Shown in pieces: positions 6,151-59,944 of a stretch of DNA of 64,000 bases. The first letter of the stretch is position 1, and every line of letters starts with the position of its first letter. The DNA is from Mobula hypostoma (Eukaryota), in the NCBI RefSeq assembly GCF_963921235.1, contig NC_086097.1:176764001-176828000 (forward strand), read 5' to 3'. Position numbers and translations under genes: made by a program. The notes under the pieces were generated by a model, which searched no databases, was not told the DNA's origin, and saw only the letters and a program-made list of their open reading frames with translations.

Positions 6151-6740
6151 GAGGGTCTCTGTTGGTCAGAGCTGACCACGGATATTGCATCCTAGCCTTC
6201 TAGCTACGCAAGCCTGGGCAGTACATTATGGAGAGCAAGCTGTTGCCCATGTAGCAAGATCCCTCTCTCCATGCATCTGATGAACCCAAAGGAACAGTAG
6301 AGACCGATACAGTTTGGTACCAGCAGTGTTGCAGGAGTTGCCAGTCAGCATTGAATTCAATCTAGGACTTCCTTAGGGACTACAGCTCCAGACACTTCCC
6401 TTTGGGTTTACTCCTGAAGCCTTCCCCACAAGAGAGTATAACAACAAGGCAGCAGAGGTCTGAGATCAGAGTTTTCCTTCTCCGAGGTGAGCTGCCAACC
6501 ATGGTTGACAAACCCCATCTGCCCGAAGCAACTTGTTTTAAGGTACCAGTAACCCACTTTTGCCCCTTCTTCTGTCGGTAGGAACATTGCTGCAGGCTTA
6601 GTAGCTAAGCCACACATGAAGGCCAGGAGCTGGACTTGGTTGTCAGAGGTTATTTGAGGTGCGTGTCATTGGGAGCATTTAATAGGTAGTGGGAACTTGT
6701 CCCCATTACCATCCCCGGCTATAACAGACTTAAGGAACCC
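6151..6740 (-). mobile_element. Non-autonomous RTE-like element inserted in a CR1 3' fragment (6035-7040)
   Basis: Flanked by ttctcagggt/ttctcagtgt (10-bp TSD, 1 mismatch). Carries the RTE 5'UTR-like motif 'ggagaaggaaaactctgatctca'. A second copy lies at 39837-40401. Confidence 0.7.
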
Positions 6741-10962: not shown

Positions 10963-11320
10963 TGTAAGGGGGTTTCGTCTTTTATGTTACTGGGTAGGCT
11001 GATTAAAAAGGCTTCTTTGTTATGCTAAACGCTGAGAAAGTCCTTCCCAATAGCAGTTTGTTTTGTATTATCAATTGATATGAGGATGAATGAACCAATT
11101 GGGATAGTTGTTATGTTTTTGGAGTATTTGAAGATACTGTATGCGCGGGGTTTTGGGGCAGAAGGCGGGAGAGAGAGACAGAGAATGGACCAGGTGCTGT
11201 GAGTCCGCTAACGGGGTCGAACCCCGAGCGGGGCGTTCAGCGAGGAGGGAAGACGGAGTGTGGAGCATCTGGTCAACCACCGTTGTTGGTCCCAGGCGGC
11301 CGGTCGAGGTGGTCCGAGGG
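10963..11320 (+). mobile_element. Probable truncated LTR fragment
   Basis: Starts 'tgtaagggg' exactly where the CR1 tail breaks off. CpG-rich, and cut by the Penelope insertion. No closing CA end was found. Confidence 0.45.
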
Positions 11321-11365
11321 CTCCCTCCCATCCCCCCCATGGTGGTCCCCCCCATCCCTCCCCAC

Positions 11366-11795
11366 TGATCTCCCTCCTGGCACTTATCCGTGTAAGCGGA
11401 ACAACTGCTACACGTGCCCTTACACTTCCTCCCTTACCACCATTCAGGGCCCCAAACAGTCCTTCCAGGTGAGGCATCACTTCACCTGTGAGTCGACTGG
11501 GGTGATATACTGCGTCCGGTGCTCCCGATGTGGCCTTTTATATATTGGCGAGACCCGACGCAGACTGGGAGACCGCTTTGCTGAACATCTACGCTCTGTC
11601 CGCCAGAGAAAGCAGGATCTCCCAGTGGCCACACATTTTAATTCCACATCCCATTCCCATTCTGACATGTCTATCCACGGCCTCCTCTACTGTAAAGATG
11701 AAGCCACACTCAGGTTGGAGGAACAACACCTTATATTCCGTCTGGGTAGCCTCCAACCTGATGGCATGAACATCGACTTCTCTAACTTCCGCTAA
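11366..11795 (+). CDS. Penelope GIY-YIG endonuclease domain (open frame; start and RT domain missing)
   Basis: VIY...YIG motif with CCHH zinc ligands. The N-terminal part of the listed ORF is read-through from the flanking LTR fragment. Confidence 0.8.
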
Positions 11796-12090
11796 GGCCC
11801 CACCTCCCCCTCGTACCCCATCTGTTACTCATTTTTATGCACACATTCTTTCTCTTACTCTCCTTTTTCTCCCTCTGTCCCTCTGAATATACCTCTTGCC
11901 CATCCTCTGGGTCACCCCCCCCCTTGTCTTTCTTCCCGGACCTCCTGTCCCATGATCCTCTCGTATCCCCTTCTGCCTATCAACTGTCCAGCTCTCGGCT
12001 CTATCCCTCCCCCTCCTGTCTTCTCCTATCATTTTGCATCTCCCCCTCCCCCTCCAGCTTTCAAATCACTTACTCACTCTTCCTTCAGTT

Positions 12091-12126
12091 AGTCCTGATG
12101 AAGGGTCTCGGCCTGAAACGTCGACT
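12091..12126 (+). ncRNA. Minimal type-I hammerhead ribozyme motif
   Basis: AGUC-CUGAUGA-AGG(gucucgg)CCU-GAAA-C-GUC-GACU. Stems I and II pair, and helix III is reduced to a palindromic ACGU. Confidence 0.8.
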
Positions 12127-12349
12127 GCGCCTCTTCCTATAGATGCTGCTTGGCCTGCTGCGTTCACCAGCAACTTTGATGTATGTTGCTTGAATTTCCA
12201 GCATCTGCAGAATTCCTGTTGTTTGCGTTTAAATATTGATGGGTACTCATTTATATGTGCGGTGTGTCGATAAGCCAGATGCTAAAATTGAAGTGAAAAT
12301 TGAGTCATATATGCAGGTGCAATGAAAAACTTACTTGCAGCAACATGAA

Positions 12350-15036: not shown

Positions 15037-17110
15037 TTAAACTGCATCTGCCCACTCACCCAGCCTGTCCAAGTCACCCTGCATTCTCATAACATCCCCC
15101 ACACATTTCACACTGCCTCCCAGCTTTGTGTCATCGGCAAATTTGCTAATGTTACTTTTAATTCCCTCATCTAAATCATTATTATATATTGTAAACAGCT
15201 GAGGTCCCAGCACTGAACCCTGCGGTACCCCACTGGCTGCCTGCCATTCCGAAAGGGACCCGTTAATCGCTACTCTTTGTTTTCTGTCAGCCAGCCAATT
15301 TTCAATCCATGTCAGTACTCTGCTCCCAATACCATGTGCCCTAATTTTGCCCACTAATCTCCTATGTGGGACTTTATCAAAGGCTTTCTGAAAGTCCAGG
15401 TACACTACATCCACTGGCTCTCCCTTGTCCATTTTCATAGTTACATCCTCAAAAAATTCCAGAAGATTAGTCAAGCGCGACTTCCCCTTCGTAGATCCAT
15501 GCTGACTCAGACCAATCCTGTTACTGCTATCCAGATGTGTCGTAATTTCATCTTTTATAATTGACTCCAGCATCTTTCCCACCACTGACGTCAGGCTAAC
15601 CGGTCTATAATTCCCTGTTTTCTCTCTTCCTCCCTTCTTGAAGAGAGGGACAACATTAGCCACCCTCCAATCCACAGGAACTGATCCTGAATCTATAGAA
15701 CATTGGAAAATGGTTACCAATGCGTCCATGATTTCTAAAGCCACCTCCTTAAGTACCCTGGGATGCAGACCATCAGGTCCCGGGGAATTATCAGCCTTCA
15801 GACCCAACAATCTATCCAACACCATTTCCTGCCTAATATAAATTTCCTTCAATTCATCCATTACCCTAGGTCCTTTGGCCACTATTACATCTGGGAGATT
15901 GTTTGTGTCTTCCCTAGTGAAGACAGATCCAAAGTACCTGTTCAACTCGTCTGCCATTTCCTTGTTCCCCATAATAAATTCACCCACTTCTGTCTTCAAG
16001 GGCCCAATTTTGGTCTTAACTATTTTTTTTCTTTTCACATACCTAAAGAAGCTTTTACTATCCTCCTTTATATTCTTGGCTAGTTTACCTTCGTACCTCA
16101 TTTTTTTCTCCGCGTATTGCCTTTTTAGTTACCTTCTGTTGCTCTTTAAAAGTTTCCCAATCCTCCGGCTTCCCACTCATCTTTGCTATGTTATACTTCT
16201 TCTCTTTTATTGTTATGCTGTCCATTACTTACCTTGTCAGCCACGGCCTCCCCTTACTCCCCTTAGGATCTTTCTTCCTCTTTGGAATGAACTGATCCTG
16301 CACCTTTCGCATTATTCCCAGAAACACTTGCCATTGCTGTTCCACTGTCATCCCTGCTAGGGTATTGTTCCATTGAACTTTGGCCAGCTCCTCCCTCATA
16401 GCACCATAGTTCCCTTTGTTCAACTGTAATACTGACACTTCCGAGTTTCCCTTCTCCCTCTCAAATTGTAGATTAAAACTTATCATATTATGGTCACTAC
16501 CTCCTAATGGCTCCTTTACCTCGAGGTCCCTGATCAAATCCGGTTCATTGCACAACACTAAATCTAGAATTGCGTTCTCTCTGGTAGGCTCCAGTGCAAG
16601 CTGTTCTAAGAATCCATCTCGGAGGGACTCCACAAACTCCCTTTCTTGGGGTCCAGTACCAACCTGATTCCTCCAGTCTACCTGCATGTTGAAGTCGCCC
16701 ATAACAACTGTAGCATTACCTTTGCGACATGCCAATTTTAACTCTTGATTCAACTTGCACCTTACATCCAGACTACTGTTTGGGGACCTGTAGATAACTC
16801 CTATTAGGGTCTTTCTACCTTTAGAATTTCTCAGTTCTATCCATACTGAGTCTACGTCTCCTGATTCTATGTCCCCCCTCGCAAGGGACTGAATATCATT
16901 CCTCACCAACAGAGCCACCCCACCCCCTCTGCATATCAGCCTGTCCTTTCGATAGGACGTATATCCTTGAATATTCATTTCCCAGGCCCTGTCCACTTGA
17001 AGCCATGTCTCTGTTATTCCCACAACATCATACTTACCAATTTCCAACTGTGCCTCAAGCTCATCCACTTTATTTCTTATACTCCATGCATTCATATACA
17101 ATACTTTTAA
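15037..17110 (-). pseudogene. CR1 ORF2 (AP endonuclease plus reverse transcriptase), split and truncated
   Basis: GITETW, MGDFN, LDLVL and SDH in 16229-17296. NYRPVSLTS, YLDFQKAFDKV, GVPQGSVLGP and FADD in 15037-16101. Confidence 0.93.
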
Positions 17111-17283
17111 TTCATTACTCCCCTCACCTCCCATATCAATTCCTATTTCACTTGGCCATACTGTACGATCACTTCTTGAGCTTTCTGCTCTGTTGATTCT
17201 GCTGTCATTCTTAACTTTTCTTATTCTCACTTTCCCTTTATCTCCATCCTTATGTTTCCAGTTCGTCCCCTCCCCCCCACTAC

Positions 17284-18277
17284 TTAGTTTAAACACACCC
17301 GTGTTGCAGAGTCAAACCTGCCTGCCAGAATGCTGGTGCCCCGCTTATTGAGGTGCAACCCGTCCCTTTTGTACAATTCATCCTTACCCCGAAACATACC
17401 CCAGTGGTCCAAGAATGTAAATCCTTGCTTCCTGCACCAGTTCCTCAGCCACACATTCAGATCCATTATCTCCCTGTTCTTGACCAGTCCAGCACGGGGA
17501 ACTGGAAGCAAACCGGAGATAACCACCCTGGAAGTCCTGCTTTTCAGCCTTCTTCCGAGTTCTCTGAAGTCGCGCTGTAGGATGTCTTTCGTCTTCTTCT
17601 CCACGTCATTTGTGCTGACATGCACCAACACTTCCGGATGTTCTCCTTCACCCTTGAGGATTCCTTGTAATCGGTCCGTGACGTCCTGGATCCTGGCACC
17701 AGGGAGGCAACACACCATCCTTAAATCCCGCCCGTTGCCGCAGAAACCCCTTTCTGTACCTCTCACTATGGAGTCCCCTACTACCACGGCTCTGCCTGAC
17801 GTCTGTCTCCTCGGCTTTGCCTCAGCACCAAATGTTGACTCGCAGACCCGTCCGCCTCTCAGGCTGGCAGTGTCTTCTGTTGCGACAGCTTCCAAGAGGG
17901 AGATCCTGTTTACGAGAGGCAGTCTCCTGTACTTCAAGCATCCTTTCCTTGCTCATCGTCGTCCTCCTACTCTCTTCCTGTATCCTGGATGTAACGATCT
18001 CACTGTAGGTCCTGTCCAGAAAACTCTCGTTCTCCTGGATTAACCTAACATCATCCAGTTACCTCTCCAGTGCTGCAACACTGTCCTTCAGAAGCTAAAT
18101 ATGGACACATTTTCCACAGGTGTAGGATCCAGAGGCACCATCAGTGTCCCTGACTTCCCACATCATGCACGCAGCACATTGAATCAGCCTAGCGGTCATC
18201 TCTTCTCCACTTCTCACCCTCTCCGACTGTGGTGTAGTCTCTGCCCTCAGCCTCCTTGCCGAAGAGTCCTGAGCCAA
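17284..18277 (-). pseudogene. CR1 ORF1 (zinc finger plus SGNH/GDSL esterase), disrupted
   Basis: CAACMMW...YTCGKC (18095-18277). GDSIVRG, PGARI, HVSTND and DGLHLN (17284-17937). Confidence 0.9.
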
Positions 18278-39836: not shown

Positions 39837-40401
39837 CCTTAAAGTTATCATCGCCATGGTGGTAATAGGGACAAGCTCCCGCTACCTGTTAAATGCTCCC
39901 AATGGTCTGCGCCTCAAATAGCCTCTGACAACCCAGTCCAGCTCCTGGCCTTCATGTGTGGCTCAGTTACTGAACCCAGCGGAACTGTTTTCTACTGACA
40001 GGAGAAGGGGCAAAGGTGGGTTACTGGCACCTGAAAACCAGTCGCTTCGGGCAGATGGGGCTTGTCAGCTGTGGTTGGCAGCTCATCTAGGAGAAGGAAA
40101 ACTCTGATCTCAAACTCCATCTGCCTTGCAGCTATACCGACTCATGGGGAAGGTTTCGGGAGTAAACCCTGAGGGAAAAATCTGATGATGGAGTCCCTAA
40201 AGCCTATGTTATGTTCAATGCTGCAACACCACTGTTACCAAACTGTATTGGTCTCTGTCATTCCTTTGGGTTTATCAGATGCGTGGAGAGGGGGGGCTTG
40301 CTACATGGGCAACAGCTTACTCTCCATATCTTCCTGGCCAGGCTTGCGTATCTCGACAGCTCGGATGCAACATTCGTGGTGAACCTTGACTGACAGAGGC
40401 C
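39837..40401 (+). mobile_element. Non-autonomous RTE-like element, second copy
   Basis: Colinear with the reverse complement of 6151-6740. Confidence 0.75.
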
Positions 40402-41346
40402 CCACTCACTCTTTTGTTTTACCTTGTTCTGCCTGAGTGCATTGTGTAATGATTTGATTTATATGAACCGCTTTACCTCTGTACATGTGACAATAATAAA
40501 CCAATAGCAATTCTCTGATAATGTTATGAGAGAGGAATGCCCACTGGTAGCTGTGCAGTTTCTCACTTCCGAGTGAATGTAAGAGAAAGAAGAGCAATTT
40601 ATTGTAGAAATTCTCCCAGACATCCAAGGACCAATATTTACCCCTTCTGTCAACACTGCAAGAGATTATATGGCTGATATCGTGCTGTGTTTCGTGTGAG
40701 CTTACTCAGTGCAATTTGGCTGCTGTGCTTTCAACTTTGCAATAATTATTCCACTTCCAAGGTAGTTCATTGGCTCTACAAAGTTCAAGGGCATCCTGAA
40801 TGTGAAGGTCTTACCCATTCTGTCTCCACTTGTTCTTCTCAGTCAGCTCAGATCGGGCCTGATTAGGGACAACTTCACCACAATTATCCACAACACTGGT
40901 GTCCCACAAGGTTGGTCCTCAGCCTGCTACTGTACTCCCTGTACACTTGTGACTTTGTGGACTAATTCTGATTCAGCTCCACCTACAAGTTTACAGGTGA
41001 TGCAGCCATAGTGGACCCAATCTTGAATAACGATGAGTTGGAATACAGGAAGTAGATAGAGAGCATAATAACATGATAACATGAAAATAATCTTTCCTTC
41101 AATGTCAACAAAATAAAAGAGCTGGTCATTGACTTCTGTGTGTGGGATGGATGGACAGTATTTGCAACCATTCCTTTTTACTTCAATGCTCTGAGGCCAA
41201 GAGGGCTGACAGCTTCAAGTTCCAAGGGGAGAACATTTCAACTATGTAGGACACGAGGAATTCTGCAGATGCTGGAAATTCAAGCAACACACATCAAAGT
41301 TTCTGGTGAATGCAGCAGGCCAGGCAGCATCTCTAGGAAGAGGTAC

Positions 41347-41382
41347 AGTCGACGTTTCAGGCCGAGACCCTTCGTCAGGACT
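41347..41382 (-). ncRNA. Minimal hammerhead ribozyme motif (inverted pseudo-LTR)
   Basis: Minus strand reads AGUC-CUGACGA-AGG(gucucgg)CCU-GAAA-CGUC-GACU. Confidence 0.78.
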
Positions 41383-43334
41383 AACTGAAGGAAGAGTGAA
41401 TAAGAGATTTGAAAGTGGGAGGGGGAAGGGAGATCCAAAATGATAGGAGAAGACAGGAGGGGGAGGGATGGAGCCAACAGCTGGACAGGTGATTGGCAAA
41501 AGGGATACGAGAGGATCATGGGACAGGAGGCCCAGGGAGAAGGAAAAGGGGGAGGGGGCTCCTGCCCACCGAACTCGCTTCTGTATACCTCGACACAGTT
41601 TTATCCCCCTTGTTCAATCCCTTCCCACCTATGTTCGTGACACTTCTCACGTTCTCAAACTTTTCGATGATTTTAAGTTCCCTGGCCCCACCACTTTATT
41701 TTCACCATGGATGTCCAGTCCCTGTATACTTCCAACCCCCGTCAGGAAGGTCTCAAAGCTCTCCGCTTCTTTTTGGATTCCAGACCTAATCAGTTCCCCT
41801 CTACCACCACTCTGCTCCGTCTAGCGGAATTAGTCCTTACTCTTAATAATTTCTCCTTTGGCTGCTCCCACTTCCTCCAAACTAAAACTATGCCTGTCTT
41901 TTTGTTGGCTTTGTGGAACAATCTATGCTCTGTGCCTATTCTGGTATCTGTCCCCCACTTTTCCTTCGCTACATTGACGACTGTATTGGCGCTGCTTCCT
42001 GCATGCATGCTGAGCTCGTTGACTTCATTAACTTTGCCTCCAACTTTCACCCTGCCCTCAAGTTTACCTGGTCCATTTCCGACACCTCCCTCCCCTTTCT
42101 AGACCTTTCTGTCTCTGTCTCTGGAGACAGCTTATCTACTGATGTCTACTATAAGCCTACTGATTCTCACAGCTATCTGGACTATTCCTCTTTTCACCCT
42201 GTCTCTTGCAAAAATGCCATCCCCTTCTCGCAATTCCTCCGTCTCTGCCGCATCTGCTCTCAGGATGAGGCTTTTCATTCTAGGACGAGGGAGATGTCCT
42301 CCTTTTTTAAAGAAAGGGGCTTTCCTTCCTCCACCATCAACTCTGCTCTCAAACGCATCTCCCCCATTTCACGCACATCTGCTCTCACTCCATCCTCCCG
42401 TCACCCCACTAGGAATAGGGTTCCCCTGGTCCTCACCTACCACCCCACCAGCCTCCTGGTCCAACATATTATTCTACATAACTTCCGCCACCTCCAACAG
42501 GATCCCACCACTAAGCACATCTTTCCCTCCCCCCCCCCGCATTCTGCAGGGATCGCTCCCTACGCAACTCCCTTGTCCATTCATCCCTCCCATCCCTCCC
42601 CACTGATCTCCCTCCTGGCACTTATCCTTGTAAGCGGAACAAGTGCTACACATGCCCTTACACTTCCTCCCTTACCAGCATTCAGAGCCCTAGACAATCC
42701 TTCCAGGTGAGGCGACACTTCACCTGTGAGTCAGCTGGGGTGATATACTGCATCCGGTGCTCCCGATGTGGCCTTCTATATATTGGCGAGACCCGACGCA
42801 GACTGGGAGACTGCTTTGTTGAACACCAACGCTCTGTTTGCCAGAGAAAGCAGGATCTCCCAGTGGCCACACATTTTAATTCCACATCCCATTCCCATTC
42901 TGATATGTCTATCCACGGCCTCCTCTACTGTAAAGATGAAGCCACACTCAGGTTGGAGGAACAACACCTTATATTCCATCTGGGTAGCCTCCAACCTGAT
43001 GGCATGAACATTGACTTCTCTAACTTCCGCTAATGCCCCACCTCCCCCTCGTACCCCATCCGTTGTTTATTTATATACACACACATTTTTTCTCTCTCTC
43101 TCCTTTTTCTCCCTCTGTCCCTCTGACTATACCCCTTGCCCATCCTCTGGGTTTTTCCCCCCTCCCCCTTTTCCTTCTCCCTGGGCCTCCTGTCCCATGA
43201 TCCTCTCATATCTCTTTTGCCAATCACCTGTCCAGCTCTTGGCTCCATCCCTCCCCCTCCTGTCTTCTCCTATCGTTTTGGATCTCCCCCTCCCCCTCCC
43301 ACTTTCAAATCTCTTACTAGCTCTTCCTTCAGTT

Positions 43335-43370
43335 AGTCCTGACGAAGGGTCTCAGCCCGAAACGTCAACT
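43335..43370 (+). ncRNA. Minimal hammerhead ribozyme motif (3' pseudo-LTR), stem I mismatch
   Basis: AGUC-CUGACGA-A-GGG(ucucag)CCC-GAAA-CGUC-AACU. Confidence 0.7.
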
Positions 43371-43428
43371 GTACCTCTTCCTAGAGATGCTGCCTGGCCT
43401 GCTGCGTTCACCAGCAACTTTGATGTGT

Positions 43429-48812: not shown

Positions 48813-49317
48813 AGGCTTCTGATTCTGATTCTGATTCAATAGTCTTATGACAGCAGTATAGAATCTGTTCATGAGTCTGGTGGTACATGATTTTAGGGTT
48901 TTGTATTTTAAGACAGATGGGAGGGGTGAGAAGAGAGAATGTCTGGGGTGGGTGGTTTATTCCTGCTTTACTGAGGCAGTAAGAACTGTAGATAAAGTCC
49001 ATGGAGGGATGGCCGTTTTCTATGATGTGCCATAACTCACAAAGAAAGCTATAGCTAAGGTGCTGAAAGATGGGATTAAAATAGATTGCCTCCCACTGCT
49101 CAGTATGCATATGCTGGGCCAAATGGCCATTTTCCACAATGCATGGCAGTAGGATTCTGTAAAATCCATTCGTGCAAAATCTCAAAGTTTCCTTCATGAT
49201 CTTCTGTGTTACTGACGAACAAAAGTGTGTACATGGAAGTCAGAAGGACACAGTGGTGTCCAGCAGTGTGCAGAAGAGGTTTACCAGGATGCTGCCTGGA
49301 TTAGAGGGTATAAGCTC

Positions 49318-49631: not shown

Positions 49632-49790
49632 CAAGCTATAAGAAGAGATTGGACATATCCCTCCTCCTCTTTATACTATATCCCCTCTATCCACTTCCCA
49701 ATTCCCTCCACAGATGCTGTCTGATCTGCTGAGTTCCTGCAGCAGTTTGTGTGTAGCTCCAGATTCCAGCATCTGCAGATATCTATGTCT

Positions 49791-50510
49791 CCACGAATCT
49801 ATGCTGACACTCTTTGATCAGGTCTGACCATATTTTAGAATTCACTCTGATTCCACCATCAATAACTATGCTCTCCTGCAAGTTGAGTAATTTCAATGCT
49901 ATTGTTACACAGATCGAAGGAAAACAAGTCTACTGTAAAGAAGAATACTGTTCCTGTCCACAGTTACACAACGTCCAGGCCTCTGCTCACCAGGCCAGGG
50001 GAATCCATGTTATTAGTAGCTTCCCCGAGGAATAAAAGTTCAATTTGAGATGAAAATTACAGGCTGCAGACTGCCAACCTTGTCATTGTCACACAAGGAA
50101 GCAGTATGGGAAATCAACTCTGTGAAGATTGCACTGCACTGAATATTTTGGAACCTAATCAGTGGGGATGGAAGTAACTGTAAGAAGGAATATTATGATC
50201 TTAAATTCCTTCATTATTGATCGTCGTTTCTGGCAACCTCATTAAATTGAGAAACACATCTTTACTGTCTCACGTGCAGCCAAGTTTTATATGGATGTCC
50301 ATGTCTCTGTAATAACCTCCCACACACACAGCCTCAGCTGTCTGAGATATCCACATCCCTCCAGTTTTGACCTCTTCCACATCATAAATTTAATCACTCA
50401 TCAGTGCTTTGTGATTTAGTCTCTGATTTTTTATGTTACTCTGTCACATCCTGTCCTTTATTGCTAATGCACAATTTCCTGCAATTCCAGCCTCTTGTTC
50501 ATCCCCATTT
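49791..50510 (+). repeat. Left arm of diverged inverted repeat
   Basis: Colinear reverse-complement match to 52095-52874. Confidence 0.92.
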
Positions 50511-52094
50511 CCCTTTGTATTTGTGCCTTCAGTTCTTGGATCCTGAGCTCTGTGATTCCCTCTTTTAATCTCACAACTCTCTGCCTCTCTCATCATTTAT
50601 GAGCCTCTAAATGTCTACCTTTCTGAACATTCTTCCAGATGCCCATTTCATTTTTTCCTGTAGAAGTTCAAAAAGAAATTATTCTTGAATTTGTTCATTT
50701 ACCCTTAGGGATCTGCATATTACTGGCAAGACCAACAGTTACTGCCCATCCCACTTACACTTGTCTGTCTGCTGTCCCAGATTATCCCATCTGCCTGCCC
50801 TCCTACACTTCTCACTACCTCAGTAAAGCAGCCAACTCACCCTTCCCAAACATTAACTCTTCTCTCACCTCCCTTCAGGCAGAAGATATAAAAGTCTGAA
50901 AGCACATACCATAGAAAGCATCCAATCCAGTGCATCGAGACTTAGTATGGAAACCCCTCTGCCAAGATCGGAAGAAACTGCAGAGAGATATAGACACAGC
51001 TTAGTACATCATATAAACCACCTTCTCTGCTCCATGGCCTCTGTCTACAATCCTAGCTACCTCAATAAAGCCATCAGCATAATCAAAGACCCCAGGCACT
51101 CTGGACATTCTCTCTTGTTCCCCACCTCACCACCACCCCCCATCAGTCAGAAGATACAAAAACATGAAAGCAGGCACCACTAGGCTCTACCCAACTATTG
51201 TGAGACTATTGGATGGTCTCCTAGTACACTAAGATGGACTCTTCACATCCAAATCTACCTCATTATGGCCTTACACCTTATTGTGTGTCTGCACTGCACT
51301 TTCTCTGAAACTGTAACATTTTATTTTGCATTCTGTTATTGCATTCTCTTGTTCAATCTTAATACAACACTGTAATGAAATAATCATTATGTATCTCTTA
51401 AAGTTTAAAGTTTTTCACTGTATCTCTGTATGTGAGAAAAATAAGCTAATTTACTGTCTATAACTGCTCCTGAGAGAAGGAATCCCAGAGCATAAAGTCT
51501 AAAGGCTTAAGGCACAGGTGCCAGTGAGTTGGTCCGTGATTCAGGAATGGGATGGTGTACGCACTCCTGCTTACAACTTCAAATTCCCAAGAATAAACAT
51601 CACCAATAGCCTACCTTTGTCCAGCCAGTAGAAAGTACAACAAAAACGTGCACCGATGTCTCTAATTCCTCTGGCTGCTAGAGAAATTTGGCATGTTCCT
51701 TTTGACCATCGCCAATTTTTATCAATGCACCACAGAAGTCATCCTGTCCAGGGGCGTCATGGCTAGGAAGAGCAACTACTCTGCCCAAGACCAGAAAAAA
51801 ACTACATAGAGGTGTGGACGCAGCTCAGCACTTCACGAAACATAGTCCCCCCATCCATGGACTCCGTCTGCCCACCTCAGTGCCTCAGTAATGTGATCAA
51901 AGCCCACACACTCCCTGGACATTCTCTCTTCCTACCCCTCCCATTGGACAGAAGACACAAAAGCCGGAAAGGACATACAGGATCAAGGCCAGATTCTATT
52001 GAACTACTATCTGATTATTGATGTACTCAGTTCATGTGACCCTGTATCTTGATACATGTGAAAATAATATTTACCAACGGTGCAGTGAAAACAA

Positions 52095-52874
52095 GTGGGG
52101 ATGAATAAAAAGCTGGAAGTGCAGAAACCTGAGTGTTGTAGGCCGACAATCAGTGACAGGGTTGTCCAGGATGTGACAGGAAGAATTTCAGGTGCAACGT
52201 AAAAGTGGAGAGTTTTTAATGAGAGTAGTCCGAATCTGAAGACCTAGTGGAGCGATTAAATTTACTGAAGCGGAAGAGGTCAGAACCGGAGGGGTGTGGA
52301 TGTCTCTAGGAGCTGTGAGCTGGGGGGATTGCAGAGGCATAGGGAGCCCATGTAAAAACTTGCTGCAATGTGAGGCAGTAAAGATGTGTGTTTCTCAATT
52401 TAATGAGGTTGCCAGAAGTGTGAATCCTAATGACAGATCTTAAGATCATAATATTCCCTCTTATGGTGATGTGCACCCCTACTGATAGTGTTCCAAAATA
52501 CTCAGTGCAGTGCAATCTTCCCAGAGTTGATTTCCCGTACTGCCTCCTGGGCCTGATGTGTGGAAATGACAATATTGGCAGTCTGCAGCCTGTAATTTCT
52601 GTCTCCATTCCAACTTGTATTCCTCAGGGAAGCTGCTAATAATATGGATTCCCCCGGCCTGGTGAACAGTGGCTTGGACACTGTAACTGTGGATGGGAAC
52701 AGTATTTTTCTTCACGTTAGACCAGTTTGCCTTCAGTATGTGTAACAGCGGCACTGAAATTGTATCTAAATAAATCATTCACCTTGCAGGAGATCACAGT
52801 TATTGATGGTGGATTCAGAGTGAATTATAAAATGTGGTTGCACCTGATCAAAGAGTGTCAGCGTGGATTTGTGG
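52095..52874 (-). repeat. Right arm of diverged inverted repeat
   Basis: Includes exact 31-, 24- and 21-bp blocks shared with the left arm. Confidence 0.92.
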
Positions 52875-53435
52875 AATTTAGGTTGCAGCTGCCTCAGCCA
52901 GCTGTATCCGCTGAAGGATTACATCACAGTTCCTTCACAGAAGTAGGCCATTCAGCCCAACCAATCCATGCTAGTGTATATGCAGCGTATATGTGTATGT
53001 CTTTTGTATGTACCAACTCTCCACATCTAGTCTGATAAAAACTGATCACAGGGAGTTTTGATGTAGTTACTGGTGCTAAGGGTGTAGAGGAAACATGGCA
53101 ACTTTGAGAAATATTTAATACTGAAGCATTTTTCACCTCTGATTCACAGACTCAGGTCTCACCCCATCGTCAGTGCTAACCTGGCAGTGGGGAAGAGGCA
53201 CTGCTGTCTTCCCCTCGAGGCCTCAAAATCAAACACAGACACCATCTGTCCTCCGAAGTCATGTGAAAGATCCCACAACACCGTCTCAGAGAAAAGCACT
53301 GAGATCTCCCTGGCGCCCTGATATATACACCAGAAACTTCGAGCTGATGGAAGAGGCATAATCAGTAAGTTTGCAGGTGATACGAAGGTTGGTGGATAGC
53401 ACATAGGGTTGTCTGTAAGGTTACAGAGGGTTAGA

Positions 53436-53722
53436 GGGCAGCACGATAGTGCAGCGGCTAGCACAGCACTTTACAGTACCAGCGACCCAGGTTCATTTCC
53501 CAGAGCTGTCTGTAAGGAGTCTGTACACTCTCCCTGCGAACATGTAGGTTTCCTCTGGGTGCTCCGGTTTCCTCCCACAGTCCAATGATGTACCAGTTGG
53601 TAGGTTAATTGGTCATTGTAACATGTCCTGTGATTAGGCTGGGGTTAAATCCGTGGTTTGCTGGGCAGTGTGGCTCGAAGGGCCGGAAGTGCCTGTTCCA
53701 TCTGTATCTCAAAAACAAAACA
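53436..53722 (+). mobile_element. V-SINE (HE1-like) with CR1-type tail
   Basis: tRNA-like head, V-domain 'ggtttcctctgggtgctccggtttcctcccacagtccaa', tail 'gaagggccggaagtgcctgttcc', A-rich end. Confidence 0.88.
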
Positions 53723-55959
53723 AAGTAAATTGACAGGCCATGGATGGATACACTCCCTGTGTTGGCAGTCATGATTAGTATAGAAGGGCAAGGAAGCCAG
53801 CATGGGCGAATTGGGTTGAAGGGCTTTATGCTGTGCCCTTTGAATTGATGGCACTGTGACAATGTCAATTCCTTAAGGCACATTACTGATGTCCTGGTGA
53901 TTATTGCATCACTGACTGTAAGATCTCACTGTGTACAAGTTGATGGCCAGCGTTCCAACCAGTTGCTGGAGATGTACTCCAGAAGTATCTCAAAGGTCAC
54001 TGTGAAAGCCATTACATAAATGCAAGTCTTCTTTGACTTAGAAATTGTCAGAACTAAAGGCAGCTGTTCACACTTTGAAACCTCATTAAATAACACTACA
54101 GCTGTGACACTGGAGGTTCTGATGGAACCAAATGGCAAATGTCATTATTTCCTTGACTGATATAGCAGCACATAATAGACACCATTTGTTAAAAAAAAAG
54201 ACATTACATCAGCATAGAAGAAGTGAGGTTATTACCTAATGCTGCATTGGTAGGCAGAATTATATTAATTTTATGCAACCTCTCCCTACGCCTTTCTTTG
54301 CAAGGCATTTCTGCTTGTCACTGCCTATTCCCCTCAGCTGAGTGGTGATTATGTAACCTTATAACATCCAGATCAAGTAACTGCTTTATCAGCACCCAAA
54401 CATTAATTCCCTCTACTACCAAGAATGGCAAATTCAGCAGGCTAATGGGAGCGCCACCACCAGCAGATTCCCCACCAAGTCTCACATTGCCCAAACTTTG
54501 AAATATTCCACAGCTCTTTCATCACCTCTGGCTCTACTTTCTGGAATTTCTCCCCAACAACACCGTGGAAGCACCCTCAACAGGACTGTGGTGATTCAAG
54601 AAAGTGGCTCACCAATGCATTCTCAAGGGCAGTTAGAAGTCAACAATAAATGCTGCCCTCATGAATAACACTGGACTGCAAATTTTTTACAAAGTGTTGC
54701 TTCCTCAGAAAATTTTTTTAGTTGTGATAGAACACTTGAAGCTAAACATAAATATAATTTCATACTACTTATATCACATGGAAATGTGGCGAAACAGGAA
54801 ATGAACTTTTATTTGATATAATACATTTAATTGTATAATGGTGCTGATGCTTGGCAATTATTCAACTAAGCTAAAAATGTTCTGTTGATGATTTTCATTT
54901 GTACTCAGTGTCTGAGGCTTCTTGCCTAAGAGTCCAACAATAATCAGCTAACACTGATAGATTCCAATGACCTGATACCTTTTCTCCAGGACCGCAGTAT
55001 CCTGGAGAAACCTTTTACCACGCTCGTCATTGACAGGAGCTAAGATTTACAGGGAAGTCTAAATGGGAATGCAGAAAATGAATCTCTAGTGACATGTTGC
55101 ACTTCATGGTTTTGTATGCTTGAAGCATGTTGTCAACCAGCCGCACGTAGTTTGGTGCTCTGTGGTTGCCAAGAGAATTTTCAACATCATCCTTAAATGC
55201 CTTCCATGCAATTTTCTCCGGTCCCACTAGAAGCTTTTTGGATTACCTGTCACTGATGACCTGTTTGATTTGTGGACCAAAAAAAAATTTTCCTTAATCT
55301 TGGTATCAGTTATTCTGGGAAACATCTGTCTCAAATATTGAAATCCTTCACGAAAAATTTTGTATCTGGTGATAACAGATTCCATCCTCGCAGTCTTGAA
55401 CCCAGTAATTCTGCTTTTGCATTTGACAAACCAAAGTCTCTGACTAGGTCATTTAACTCAGATTGAGCTATCGGATGAGGCTCACTTGACATAAAGGGTT
55501 CAAAGTCTGTATCGGTATCAGTGCCACGTTCCGCTGCTGGCTGGTGCATCATGGCATCTTAGTCTGCCTCCTCTAGACTCAATGCCTCAGGTAGCTTCGG
55601 TACTGGAAGACTATCATGCATAGGTCTCGTGGCTGCCGGGAGATTGGAGTATTCTAAGGATTTCTTGTTTTAGCAGTGAAACCAGATACACTGGTTTGAC
55701 AGAAGTAGTAGGCTATCACATGATCCTTCTGTTCTTGCCATAATAGTGGAACAGTGAATGGCATCAATGTCCGAGTACCTCTGAGCCAAGCTCTAAGATC
55801 AACATCTCATGTTGCACAATAAAGGTGAGGAGCCCAGGCCTGGTCTTGGTCACCAATTTTACATGCAACATAGAGCTCAAAGGGCTTTCTTAATAACAGG
55901 AGCCATATTCTGTCTGAGACTTAAATGTATATTCGCCACAAATATAACAGAAAGCATTG

Positions 55960-57204: not shown

Positions 57205-57601
57205 ATTGAAGTTTTTGCAATATTGGCGAGTCATTTTGTCATCACAAGTGCTCTTGAAAATATGATTAATTTATCATAAGTACACACAATATGCTATGCG
57301 CCGAGAGCATGTGCTTCAATGTAATTGCAAACCAATATACATATAAATGCAATGCCCAGAATAGTGTGTGGGTGATGCTTTTATAGCCATTCTAAAACCT
57401 GCCCTGCCATGTAGCATCCACCTTGCGTAAGCATGCCCTGGCATACCTAGACAAGGTAGAAAACTTACATTATGGGCAAAATTTTAATAGATTTGAATTA
57501 TGAATTGAAAGAGCAAATATTGGCGATTTAAAATAAAATAGTGTGTGACAGGGAAATTTCATGATCAGCAACCCAAAGTCCATGAGGTACACCCAAATGT
57601 A

Positions 57602-59249
57602 CAGTGGCATGCAAAATTTTGGGCACACCTGGTCAAAATTTCTGTTACTGTGAATAGCTAAGCGAGTAAAACATGACCTGATTTCCAAAAGGCATAAAGT
57701 TAAAGATGACACATTTCTTTAATATTTTAAGCAAGATTACTTTTTTTAATTTCCATCTTTTACAGTTTCAAAGTAACGAAAAAGGAAAAGGGCCCAAAGC
57801 TAAAGTCTGGGCACCCTGCATGGTCAGTACTTAGTAACACCCCCTTTTGCAAGTATCACCTGAAAACGCTTTGCTATCTTCTTATAGCCTTCTCCTGCTT
57901 TCTGTAGCCAGCTAAGGGTCTTTCAATTCTTGTTTGGAGGATTTTCACCCATTCTTCCTTGCAAAAGGCTTCTAGTTCTGTGAGATTCTTGGGCCGTCTT
58001 GCATGCACTGCTCTTTTGAGGTCTATCCACAGATTCTCGATGATGTTTAGGTCAGGGGACTGTGAGGGCCATGACAAAACCTTCAGCTTGTGCCTCTCGA
58101 GGTAGTCCACTGTGGATTTTGAGGTGTGTTTAGGATCATTATCTTGTTGTAGAAGCCATTCTCTTTTCATCTTCAGCTTTTTTACAGACGGTGTGATGTT
58201 TGCTTCCAGAATTTGCTGGTATTTAATTGAATTCATTCTTCCCTCTGCCAGTGAAATGTTCCCCGTGCCACTGGGTGCAACACAAGCCCAAAGCATGTCG
58301 ATTCACTCCCGTGCTTTACAGTTGGAGAGGTGTTCTTTTTATGAAACTCTGCACCCTTTTTTCTCCAAACATACCTTTGCTCATTGCGGCCAAAAAGTTC
58401 TATTTTAACTTCATCAGTCCACAGGACTTGTTTCCAATATGCATCAGGCTTGTTTAGATGTTCCTTTGCAAACTTCTGATGCTGAATTTTGTGGTGAGGG
58501 TGCAGGAAAGGTTTTCTTCTGATGGCTCTTCCATGAAGGTCATATTTGTGCAGGTGTCACTGCACAGTAGAACAGTGCACCACCACTCCAGAGTCTGCTC
58601 AATCTTCCTGAAGGTCTTTTGCAGTCAAACAGGGGTTTTCATTTGCCTTTCTAGTAATCATATGAGCAGTTATCTCGGAAAGTTTTCTCGGTCTTCCAGA
58701 CCTGAACTTGACCTCCACCATTCCTGTTAACTGCCATTTCTTAATTACATTACGAACTGAGGAAACGGCTACCTGAAAACGCTTTGCTATCTTCTTATAG
58801 CCTTCTCCTGCTTTGTGGGCATCATTTATTTTAATTTTCAGAGTGCTAGGCAGCTGCTTAGAGGAGCCCTGGCTGCTGATTGTTGGGACAAGGTTTGAGG
58901 AGTCAGGGTATTTATAAAGCTTTAAAATTTGCATCACCTGGCCTTTCCTAATGATGACTGTGAACAAGCCATAGCCCTAACAAGCTAATTAAGGTCTGAA
59001 ACCTTGGTAAAAGTTATCTGAGAGCTCAAATCTCTTGGGGTGCCCAAACTTTGGCATGGTGCTCCTTCCCTTTTTTTCACTCTAAAATTGTTCAAAACAA
59101 AAATAGTACACTAATCTTGCTTAAAATGTTGAAAAGAATATTTCATCTTTAACTTTATGTCTTTTGGAGATCAGTTCATCTTCTACTCACTTAGCTATTC
59201 ATAGCAACAGAAATTTTGACCGGAGTGCCCAAACTTTTGCATGCCACCG
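57602..59249 (-). mobile_element. Full-length Tc1-family DNA transposon, inactive
   Basis: TA on both sides. TIRs of about 0.2 kb starting cagtggcatgcaaaa, with internal direct repeats. GEGYKKIAKRF HTH, GRPRK, QQDNDPKH and WPSQSPDLNIIENLW (DD34E type). Confidence 0.95.
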
Positions 59250-59944
59250 TATTCAGGAAGAAAAATCTTTGTTGTCCAGTGAAATAGATATCACCCATGA
59301 AACAAAAAAAAGTACTATGGACATGCTTAATCATAGAACATAGAACATTCCAGCACAGGAACAGGCTCCTGAGCCCACAAAGTCTGCGATGCATACTGTT
59401 GTAGCATGGGATGAAATCACCAGAGAGACAGAGTCACTGGTAGATACAAAGCAGCTGACACAACAAGCAGGCATCATACGTACGGAGACCCTTTCGGTAG
59501 AAAGGTCTGCTAGCTCAATGTGGGCTCAGTATTTATATGCTAAACACAAAGGCAATCACTACTTAAAAAGTTATAGACAATGCATAGACAATGTTTCCTA
59601 TTGAAGCTACATACAAAATATCCCACCATCCTTTCCTTCCGACGTCAACATGTCTGGGTTGGTATCCACAGCCTTTAAGAATGCAAGTTAAGTCCACGGT
59701 GCATTTATTTGGCATTTCACATGCTAACATAGAAGACAATTAATATTTATAAAGTATAGATAATACTGTCTTTGAAACTACAGCATCTGGTCAAACTATG
59801 GTGCCAGAAACATCTGATATTCACACCTTTTTAGGAAGCGCATTGTTGTGGACTCAATCCACAGTACTTTGTCAAATAGAAGTCTGGTGGACAAAGTCAT
59901 TTAAGTGTAAACAAATCATCTACCAAAAAAATCACTCTAACAAA

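Follow-up and report, generated by a model that had tools for sequence, protein, structure and literature searches.

A single-copy segment of about 750 bp, carrying two decayed L2-like fragments, is present twice in inverted orientation at one locus of Mobula hypostoma, in a window (the whole stretch of DNA that was analysed) of 64,000 nucleotides. Taken alone, a one-off local inverted duplication is very probably the origin of the pair. The reading that we prefer joins this origin to a weak, enhancer-like cis-regulatory constraint on both copies; as a joint claim, drawn from sequence comparison, it is put forward tentatively, at somewhat less than an even chance.

Structure of the inverted pair

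The pair is made up of the following parts, where B, C and H are related organisms represented by assembled contigs.

49790..50510, plus strand: arm A of the inverted duplication (alignment; single-contig depth in organisms B, C and H)
52093..52875, minus strand: arm B of the inverted duplication (alignment; single-contig depth in B, C and H)
49790..50285, plus strand: outer part of arm A, without recognisable repeat (83.6% identical to arm B, K2P 0.19)
50286..50400, plus strand: first L2-like 3' fragment, common to both arms (82% arm to arm)
50401..50640, plus strand: innermost part of the arm (to 50510) and second L2-like 3' fragment, continuing into the spacer
50237..50258, plus strand: core of a shared exact block, AT-rich, with its partner at 52387-52408 (contig ends)
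51475..51516, minus strand: possible inward extension of arm B past an insertion, or a separate L2-like fragment

The arms are colinear, with 594 matches and 132 mismatches (81.8% identity; K2P 0.21, that is about 0.2, in the pairwise alignment), and the pair is recovered with an E value of 2e-142 when the window is searched against itself with BLAST. This confirms the earlier note on this DNA, which had described an inverted duplication of ~0.75 kb and ~80% identity with ends within 1-2 bp of ours, and had quoted three exact blocks, all of which lie where it placed them. Arm B is 63 bp longer than arm A and has a higher GC content (44.6% versus 40.4%). About 19 indels separate the arms, the spacing of their mismatches is near random (p 0.06-0.43), and their K2P distance equals that of ordinary transposon pairs of the window (0.20 and 0.16). 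Another inverted pair, 6153-6711 and 39860-40402, which lie 33 kb apart and are 82% identical over ~540 columns, looks like two copies of a dispersed element and served as a divergence scale.

Identity between the arms declines inward: it is 83.6% over the outer 496 bp, 82.1% over the 115 bp that follow and 73.6% over the innermost 110 bp (K2P 0.33), so that divergence is 16.4% in the outer part versus 26.4% in the innermost part (p 0.02). The ~220 bp at the inner end of each arm resemble two 3' fragments of what we take to be the L2 type, and both arms hold the same two old fragments in register. Transitions with A/T in arm A where arm B has G/C outnumber the reverse by 54 to 27 (p 0.004), an asymmetry stronger than that of the wobble-compatible transitions described below; arm A would thus have drifted towards A/T relative to arm B.

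The longest of the exact blocks (31 bp, 50228-50258 / 52387-52417) is no evidence by itself, because 26% of random pairs with 83% identity would be expected to contain a run of at least 31 bp. The contigs of B, C and H all break at this block, with ends at 50257/50229 in B, at 50266/50238 in C, and at 50266 and 52408/52387 in H. The block implied by these ends is 50228-50258 in B and about 50237-50267 in C and H, from which we infer a 22-bp core that would be identical across both arms in four organisms. The core presumably holds a homeodomain-type site.

At the outer junction, no significant continuation of the arms was found, and an outward extension suspected by eye near 49230-49272 was rejected after shuffling (p 0.22-0.68). 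On the inner side, 51475-51516 matches 50522-50563 with 71% identity across 42 bp (p 0.003 against shuffles in a tight window), with 0.2-3.5% of window slices scoring equally well. This sequence could complete arm B, or it could be an old fragment of its own from which a fold-back was seeded. The earlier description of the arms as uninterrupted by young transposable elements is accordingly not certain, as arm B may resume at 51475-51516 beyond an insertion. The original junctions of the duplication are not recoverable, as transposons obscure them.

Copy number in related organisms

Part of the stretch is contained in 20 of 24 sequencing runs, from 11 studies. Four of the 24 runs were compared as contig sets at a threshold of 80% likeness, namely the whole-genome sets X6 (organism B), X9 (C) and X17 (H), together with X20 (organism K), in which arm B is covered in part and arm A has no cover. 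In B, C and H, depth is 4.8-17.3 in all eight bins inside the arms, as compared with 4.3-10.3 for single contigs. The remaining 22 bins comprise 16 with depths of 95-751,449, two with 18-90 and four at the single-contig level. Summed depth is not equal to copy number, but the contrast between the arms and the rest, as measured in the three relatives B, C and H, is large. At the places listed, there are one or two contigs per place in the arms versus up to 128 in transposons.

Sister copies of the arms would match at 82-84% and pile up at the 80% threshold; such a pile-up is absent in all three runs, and the arms are therefore not a dispersed repeat. The threshold is blind to families older than the arm pair, as can be seen from the L2-like tail, whose bin (50503-50669) is also at single-contig depth. 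Within the 64-kb window, a profile built from the two arms (nhmmer --max) revealed no third copy, the next match having an E value of 0.34, and exact 30- and 24-base patterns gave no matches in metagenome and viral contigs. The earlier note had named a high dispersed copy number as the sign of two ordinary transposable-element copies in opposite orientation; the contig sets of the three relatives do not show one.

These data bear on the proposal that the arms are the terminal inverted repeats of an ancient DNA transposon or foldback element, or that a dispersed repeat inserted here twice independently, which is largely refuted and the least probable of the alternatives we considered. It would account for two arms flanking a spacer, and a family older than the pair would be invisible at 80%, as is the case for the L2-like tail. 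However, sister copies at 80% or more are missing from three of three runs, no trace of a transposase was found in searches of the arms, and retroposon-like debris sits in register inside both arms, as the two shared fragments. No terminal motif or target-site duplication was seen, the outer end of arm A abutting another insertion. The suggestion of an undescribed foldback element is therefore not supported.

Age of the arrangement and its transposon surroundings

Two neighbouring features define the setting of the arms.

50511..52092, no strand assigned: spacer, mostly old multi-copy retroposon pieces (depth 95-40,600 in eight bins; present in B, C and H)
49693..49792, plus strand: Penelope-type terminal fragment against the outer end of arm A (junction with arm A in B and C)

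The spacer had been described as packed with young transposable elements; its pieces are instead mostly 62-74% identical to other copies in the window and are found in orthologous contigs of B, C and H. In these three organisms, contig pieces with 0.6-9% differences span both arms, the spacer and the flanks. Arm A is linked by contigs to the Penelope tail in B and C, and to the spacer in all three; for arm B, contigs reach the spacer in B and C and the right flank in B and H. Since each of the three relatives has the two arms as well as the transposons of the spacer, the arrangement predates the splits from B, C and H. Arm-to-arm divergence is ~3.4-4.3 times the distance to H and 5.5 times the distance to C, and the arrangement would be about 3-5 times older than the splits from B, C and H. 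A pedigree mutation rate of 7e-10 per generation is given in the part of PMC10587355 cited here; that rate comes from another species, which allows no safe conversion, and no calendar age is therefore given.

The Penelope-type fragment at 49693-49792 is 70-83% identical to eight copies in the window, including 12141-12211, which ends an element bearing a GIY-YIG domain, and its bin reaches a depth of 44,000-144,000 in the contig sets of the relatives. Its position raises a different origin for the pair (and for the origin only), in which arm A would be host DNA copied by a Penelope-like element. We consider this distinctly unlikely. The tail ends exactly at 49792, at the outer end of arm A, its likeness to its paralogues suggests an age similar to that of the pair, and its junction with arm A is shared by B and C. 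However, the junction fits an ordinary 3' insertion boundary, and the inner end of arm A yielded neither a second Penelope arm nor a ribozyme motif nor a target duplication. Penelope tails are so abundant that one lying next to arm A is unsurprising.

The window as a whole is rich in retroposons and DNA transposons: of 16 long ORFs tested against Pfam, seven carry RVT_1, endonuclease, GIY-YIG, RNase H or DDE domains. A long, nearly intact CR1-type LINE lies at 15037-17952 on the minus strand, with open endonuclease and reverse-transcriptase frames and a further open frame that we assume to be esterase-like. Penelope-like copies at 11094-12217 and 41249-43427 are 91-95% alike, and 41289-41558 is inverted with respect to 43158-43428, in a head-to-head terminal-repeat layout. 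At 57600-59251 there is a Tc1-like DNA transposon whose terminal inverted repeats, of ~215 bp, are 80% alike and whose DDE transposase is broken. A repeat-free stretch of the size of an arm is not unusual here, as 53643-55950 has no self-match over 2.3 kb. This old, repeat-poor DNA adjoins arm B, has no Pfam match, and may be the native context of the duplicated segment.

Rate of change in the arms

Arm and non-arm rates of change were compared using all 24 pieces listed for X6, X9 and X17, with the eight short pieces of X20 excluded. The arm rate relative to the non-arm rate is 0.67 in H (95% CI 0.47-0.93, p 0.018), 0.58 in C (0.36-0.88, p 0.011) and 0.11 in B (0.01-0.54, p 0.001), three comparisons that share the branch to Mobula hypostoma. 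A CpG term hardly alters these ratios, and when one piece is left out p ranges from 0.001 to 0.08, the latter being reached in H. Gap columns make up 4 of 2255 in arm pieces versus 116 of 4798 in non-arm pieces; gapless pieces are also slowed (C p 0.05; B p 0.006), and the non-arm pieces do not differ in rate from one another (p 0.43-0.77). Plain two-by-two tests are weaker, with p 0.09 for arms versus non-arm DNA in H and p 0.14 for arms versus the mostly single-copy flank in C. When the arms (0.57) are set against single-copy non-arm DNA (0.87), the pooled p is 0.09 (H 0.41, C 0.54, B 0.009).

Given that the slowdown is not significant relative to single-copy DNA and that the comparisons share a branch, constraint is suggested rather than established: the outer ~600 bp of both arms may be under weak purifying selection, with roughly 30-40% fewer changes. 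For the duplicated regulatory element that had been proposed from the sequence alone, this means that a slowdown of ~40% relative to neighbouring transposon DNA speaks weakly in its favour, while the same comparison with single-copy DNA falls short of significance.

The same local inverted duplication could also have left a neutral relic, to which we assign an appreciable but lower chance, making it nearly as likely as weak enhancer-like constraint. The slowdown would then reflect local variation in mutation rate, a baseline inflated by multi-copy transposons and the post hoc choice of the region. The p of 0.09 against single-copy DNA is consistent with this, as are the random mismatch spacing and ~19 indels between the arms, the pair-breaking changes on the Mobula hypostoma lineage described below, and the presence close by of the 2.3-kb stretch without self-match. 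Neutrality is harder to reconcile with a slowdown that recurs in three of three runs and in both arms, gapless pieces included, while the non-arm pieces are homogeneous in rate.

Part of the change on the Mobula hypostoma lineage itself lies in a short patch of arm B.

52464..52487, plus strand: six-change patch in arm B on the Mobula hypostoma lineage (comparison with relatives)

Arm B has ~10 changes in 386 bp on this lineage, about half the flank distance to C, which would make it roughly neutral there if rates are equal in both lineages. The 24-bp patch appears to have been built in two steps, three of its changes differing from B, C, H and K and three from C and H only. Its derived letters form a small palindrome and hairpin, and a short-range template switch is possible as its source. 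Gene conversion was not adopted as the cause of the patch, as six interspersed arm-to-arm differences do not appear among the changes listed for C, a list that covers 12 of the 13 differences of that contig.

Coding potential and RNA pairing

The arms had been judged non-coding, and this is borne out by the lack of codon periodicity in six ungapped arm-to-arm blocks and of any Pfam match above the cut-off in 49 arm ORFs (one lay below it). Three protein matches to a 99-aa frame of arm B were rejected, being summed weak matches of ~30 bits to internally repetitive proteins. A tblastx comparison of the arms with the transposons of the window gave nothing below an E value of 0.17. In Rfam, the window has no match at the gathering score, and three weak snoRNA matches near the arms lie below threshold. 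No host exon was found in the 145 of 160 ORFs from unique segments of the window that were scanned, a scan which short exons would escape and which gave one retrotransposon-domain match below the cut-off.

Inverted repeats serve as ADAR substrates, and the arms may have been retained for the duplex that they would form within a pre-mRNA or lncRNA, whether it served as a long ADAR substrate, gave rise to small RNAs or acted as a splicing bridge. The slowing of both arms would fit such a role, and the predicted duplex is very stable, at -815 kcal/mol on the plus strand and -774 on the minus strand, with helices of up to 34 bp. Wobble-compatible transitions lean slightly to the plus strand (47 versus 34). 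Neither strand difference is significant, however: the lean in transitions has p 0.18, in agreement with a hand count in the earlier note that had found no consistent G-U bias, and the 41 kcal/mol by which the duplex is more stable on the plus strand has p 0.08 against 60 nulls with swapped mismatches. Transcription-linked mutation bias would yield the same lean to the plus strand. Each arm by itself folds like its own shuffles (z 0.25 and 0.06).

Lineage changes were read from 40 of 516 differences relative to the relatives, of which 15 lie in the arms, and no compensatory partner pair is present among these 15. Thirteen arm differences are common to C and H. Twelve of these have a partner base, and in 11 of the 12 the letter of the relatives is that of the other arm, showing that the changes arose on the Mobula hypostoma lineage. 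By hand count, five of these 11 match-breaking changes leave a G-U pair on the plus strand, two do so on the minus strand only (and are thus unpaired on the plus strand), and four are transversions, which indicates that pairing is broken freely on this lineage. No exon was found in the spacer, where donor-like sites are absent on the plus strand and occur on the minus strand only inside a repeat. With no exon to be found there, the idea that the arms promote circRNA formation is not supported. A selected RNA foldback, also raised earlier, gains no support from wobble, duplex energy or lineage changes, and with neither a spacer exon nor a host exon found in the window we regard retention for pairing as highly unlikely.

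A variant of equally low likelihood is that a chance duplication was co-opted as a 600-bp pairing element, with selection for pairing slowing both arms in most of these fishes and being relaxed in Mobula hypostoma. The ~10 changes of arm B on the Mobula hypostoma lineage compare with three in C (p 0.09). Pairs of conserved complementary regions in pre-mRNA have been catalogued (Kalmykova et al. 2021, PMC8052449). Like the pairs described in the part of that catalogue cited here, the arms are non-coding, complementary and within 2 kb of each other, and they would pair if co-transcribed; unlike them, the arms are long and rich in indels, and they failed the strand-bias tests for a selected duplex.

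Origin, comparison with known systems and significance

For the preferred reading of local duplication with weak enhancer-like constraint, we envisage one local replication or repair event (a template switch, fold-back priming or a staggered break) that would have copied ~750 bp backwards, at a time when the spacer was probably much shorter. Retroposons would later have filled the spacer and the flank of arm A, pushing the arms apart. The copied DNA would be cis-regulatory, and both copies may have been preserved as protein-binding elements that are redundant in part. If transcription read through the locus, the arms would pair passively in the transcript, in the manner of other inverted repeats and with no selection for pairing.

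Duplicated conserved non-coding elements and redundant enhancers are a known class. As in that class, the arms are non-coding paralogues that have been kept and whose evolution may be slowed. Unlike its members, they are adjacent and inverted and do not lie beside duplicated genes; any constraint is weak and the enhancer role putative.

As to mechanism, inverted duplications formed by fold-back (Hermetz et al. 2014, PMC3907307) and by template switching (Walker et al. 2021, PMC7954356) have been described. In the parts of these papers cited here, such events likewise place an inverted copy of non-repeat DNA beside its source with a single-copy spacer between, and the short inverted sequence at the spacer boundary that accompanies them may be represented here by 50522-50563 / 51475-51516. 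Those events are recent, have readable junctions, and are very large or very short, whereas the present pair is sub-kilobase, fixed and ~20% diverged, with junctions obscured by transposons. Staggered breaks at the breakpoints of inversions also give rise to inverted duplications (Ranz et al. 2007, PMC1885836). In the cases cited from that paper, as here, an inverted duplication of non-repetitive sequence flanks an internal segment; unlike those cases, the segment here is 1.6 kb and not a chromosomal inversion. The relatives B, C and H all carry both arms. In a literature search of partial coverage, neither this locus nor comparable pairs in elasmobranchs were found to have been described. The kind of duplication, a local inverted duplication, is already known.

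The significance of the pair depends on which reading is correct. If it is neutral, it is a mere fossil of a replication or repair error, and if selection acts on pairing, the arms would form a long RNA duplex built from non-repeat DNA, which is rare in vertebrates. If the weak constraint is true, a regulatory element was duplicated in place and both copies were kept for a long time, and the two arms would be natural paralogues for reporter comparison.
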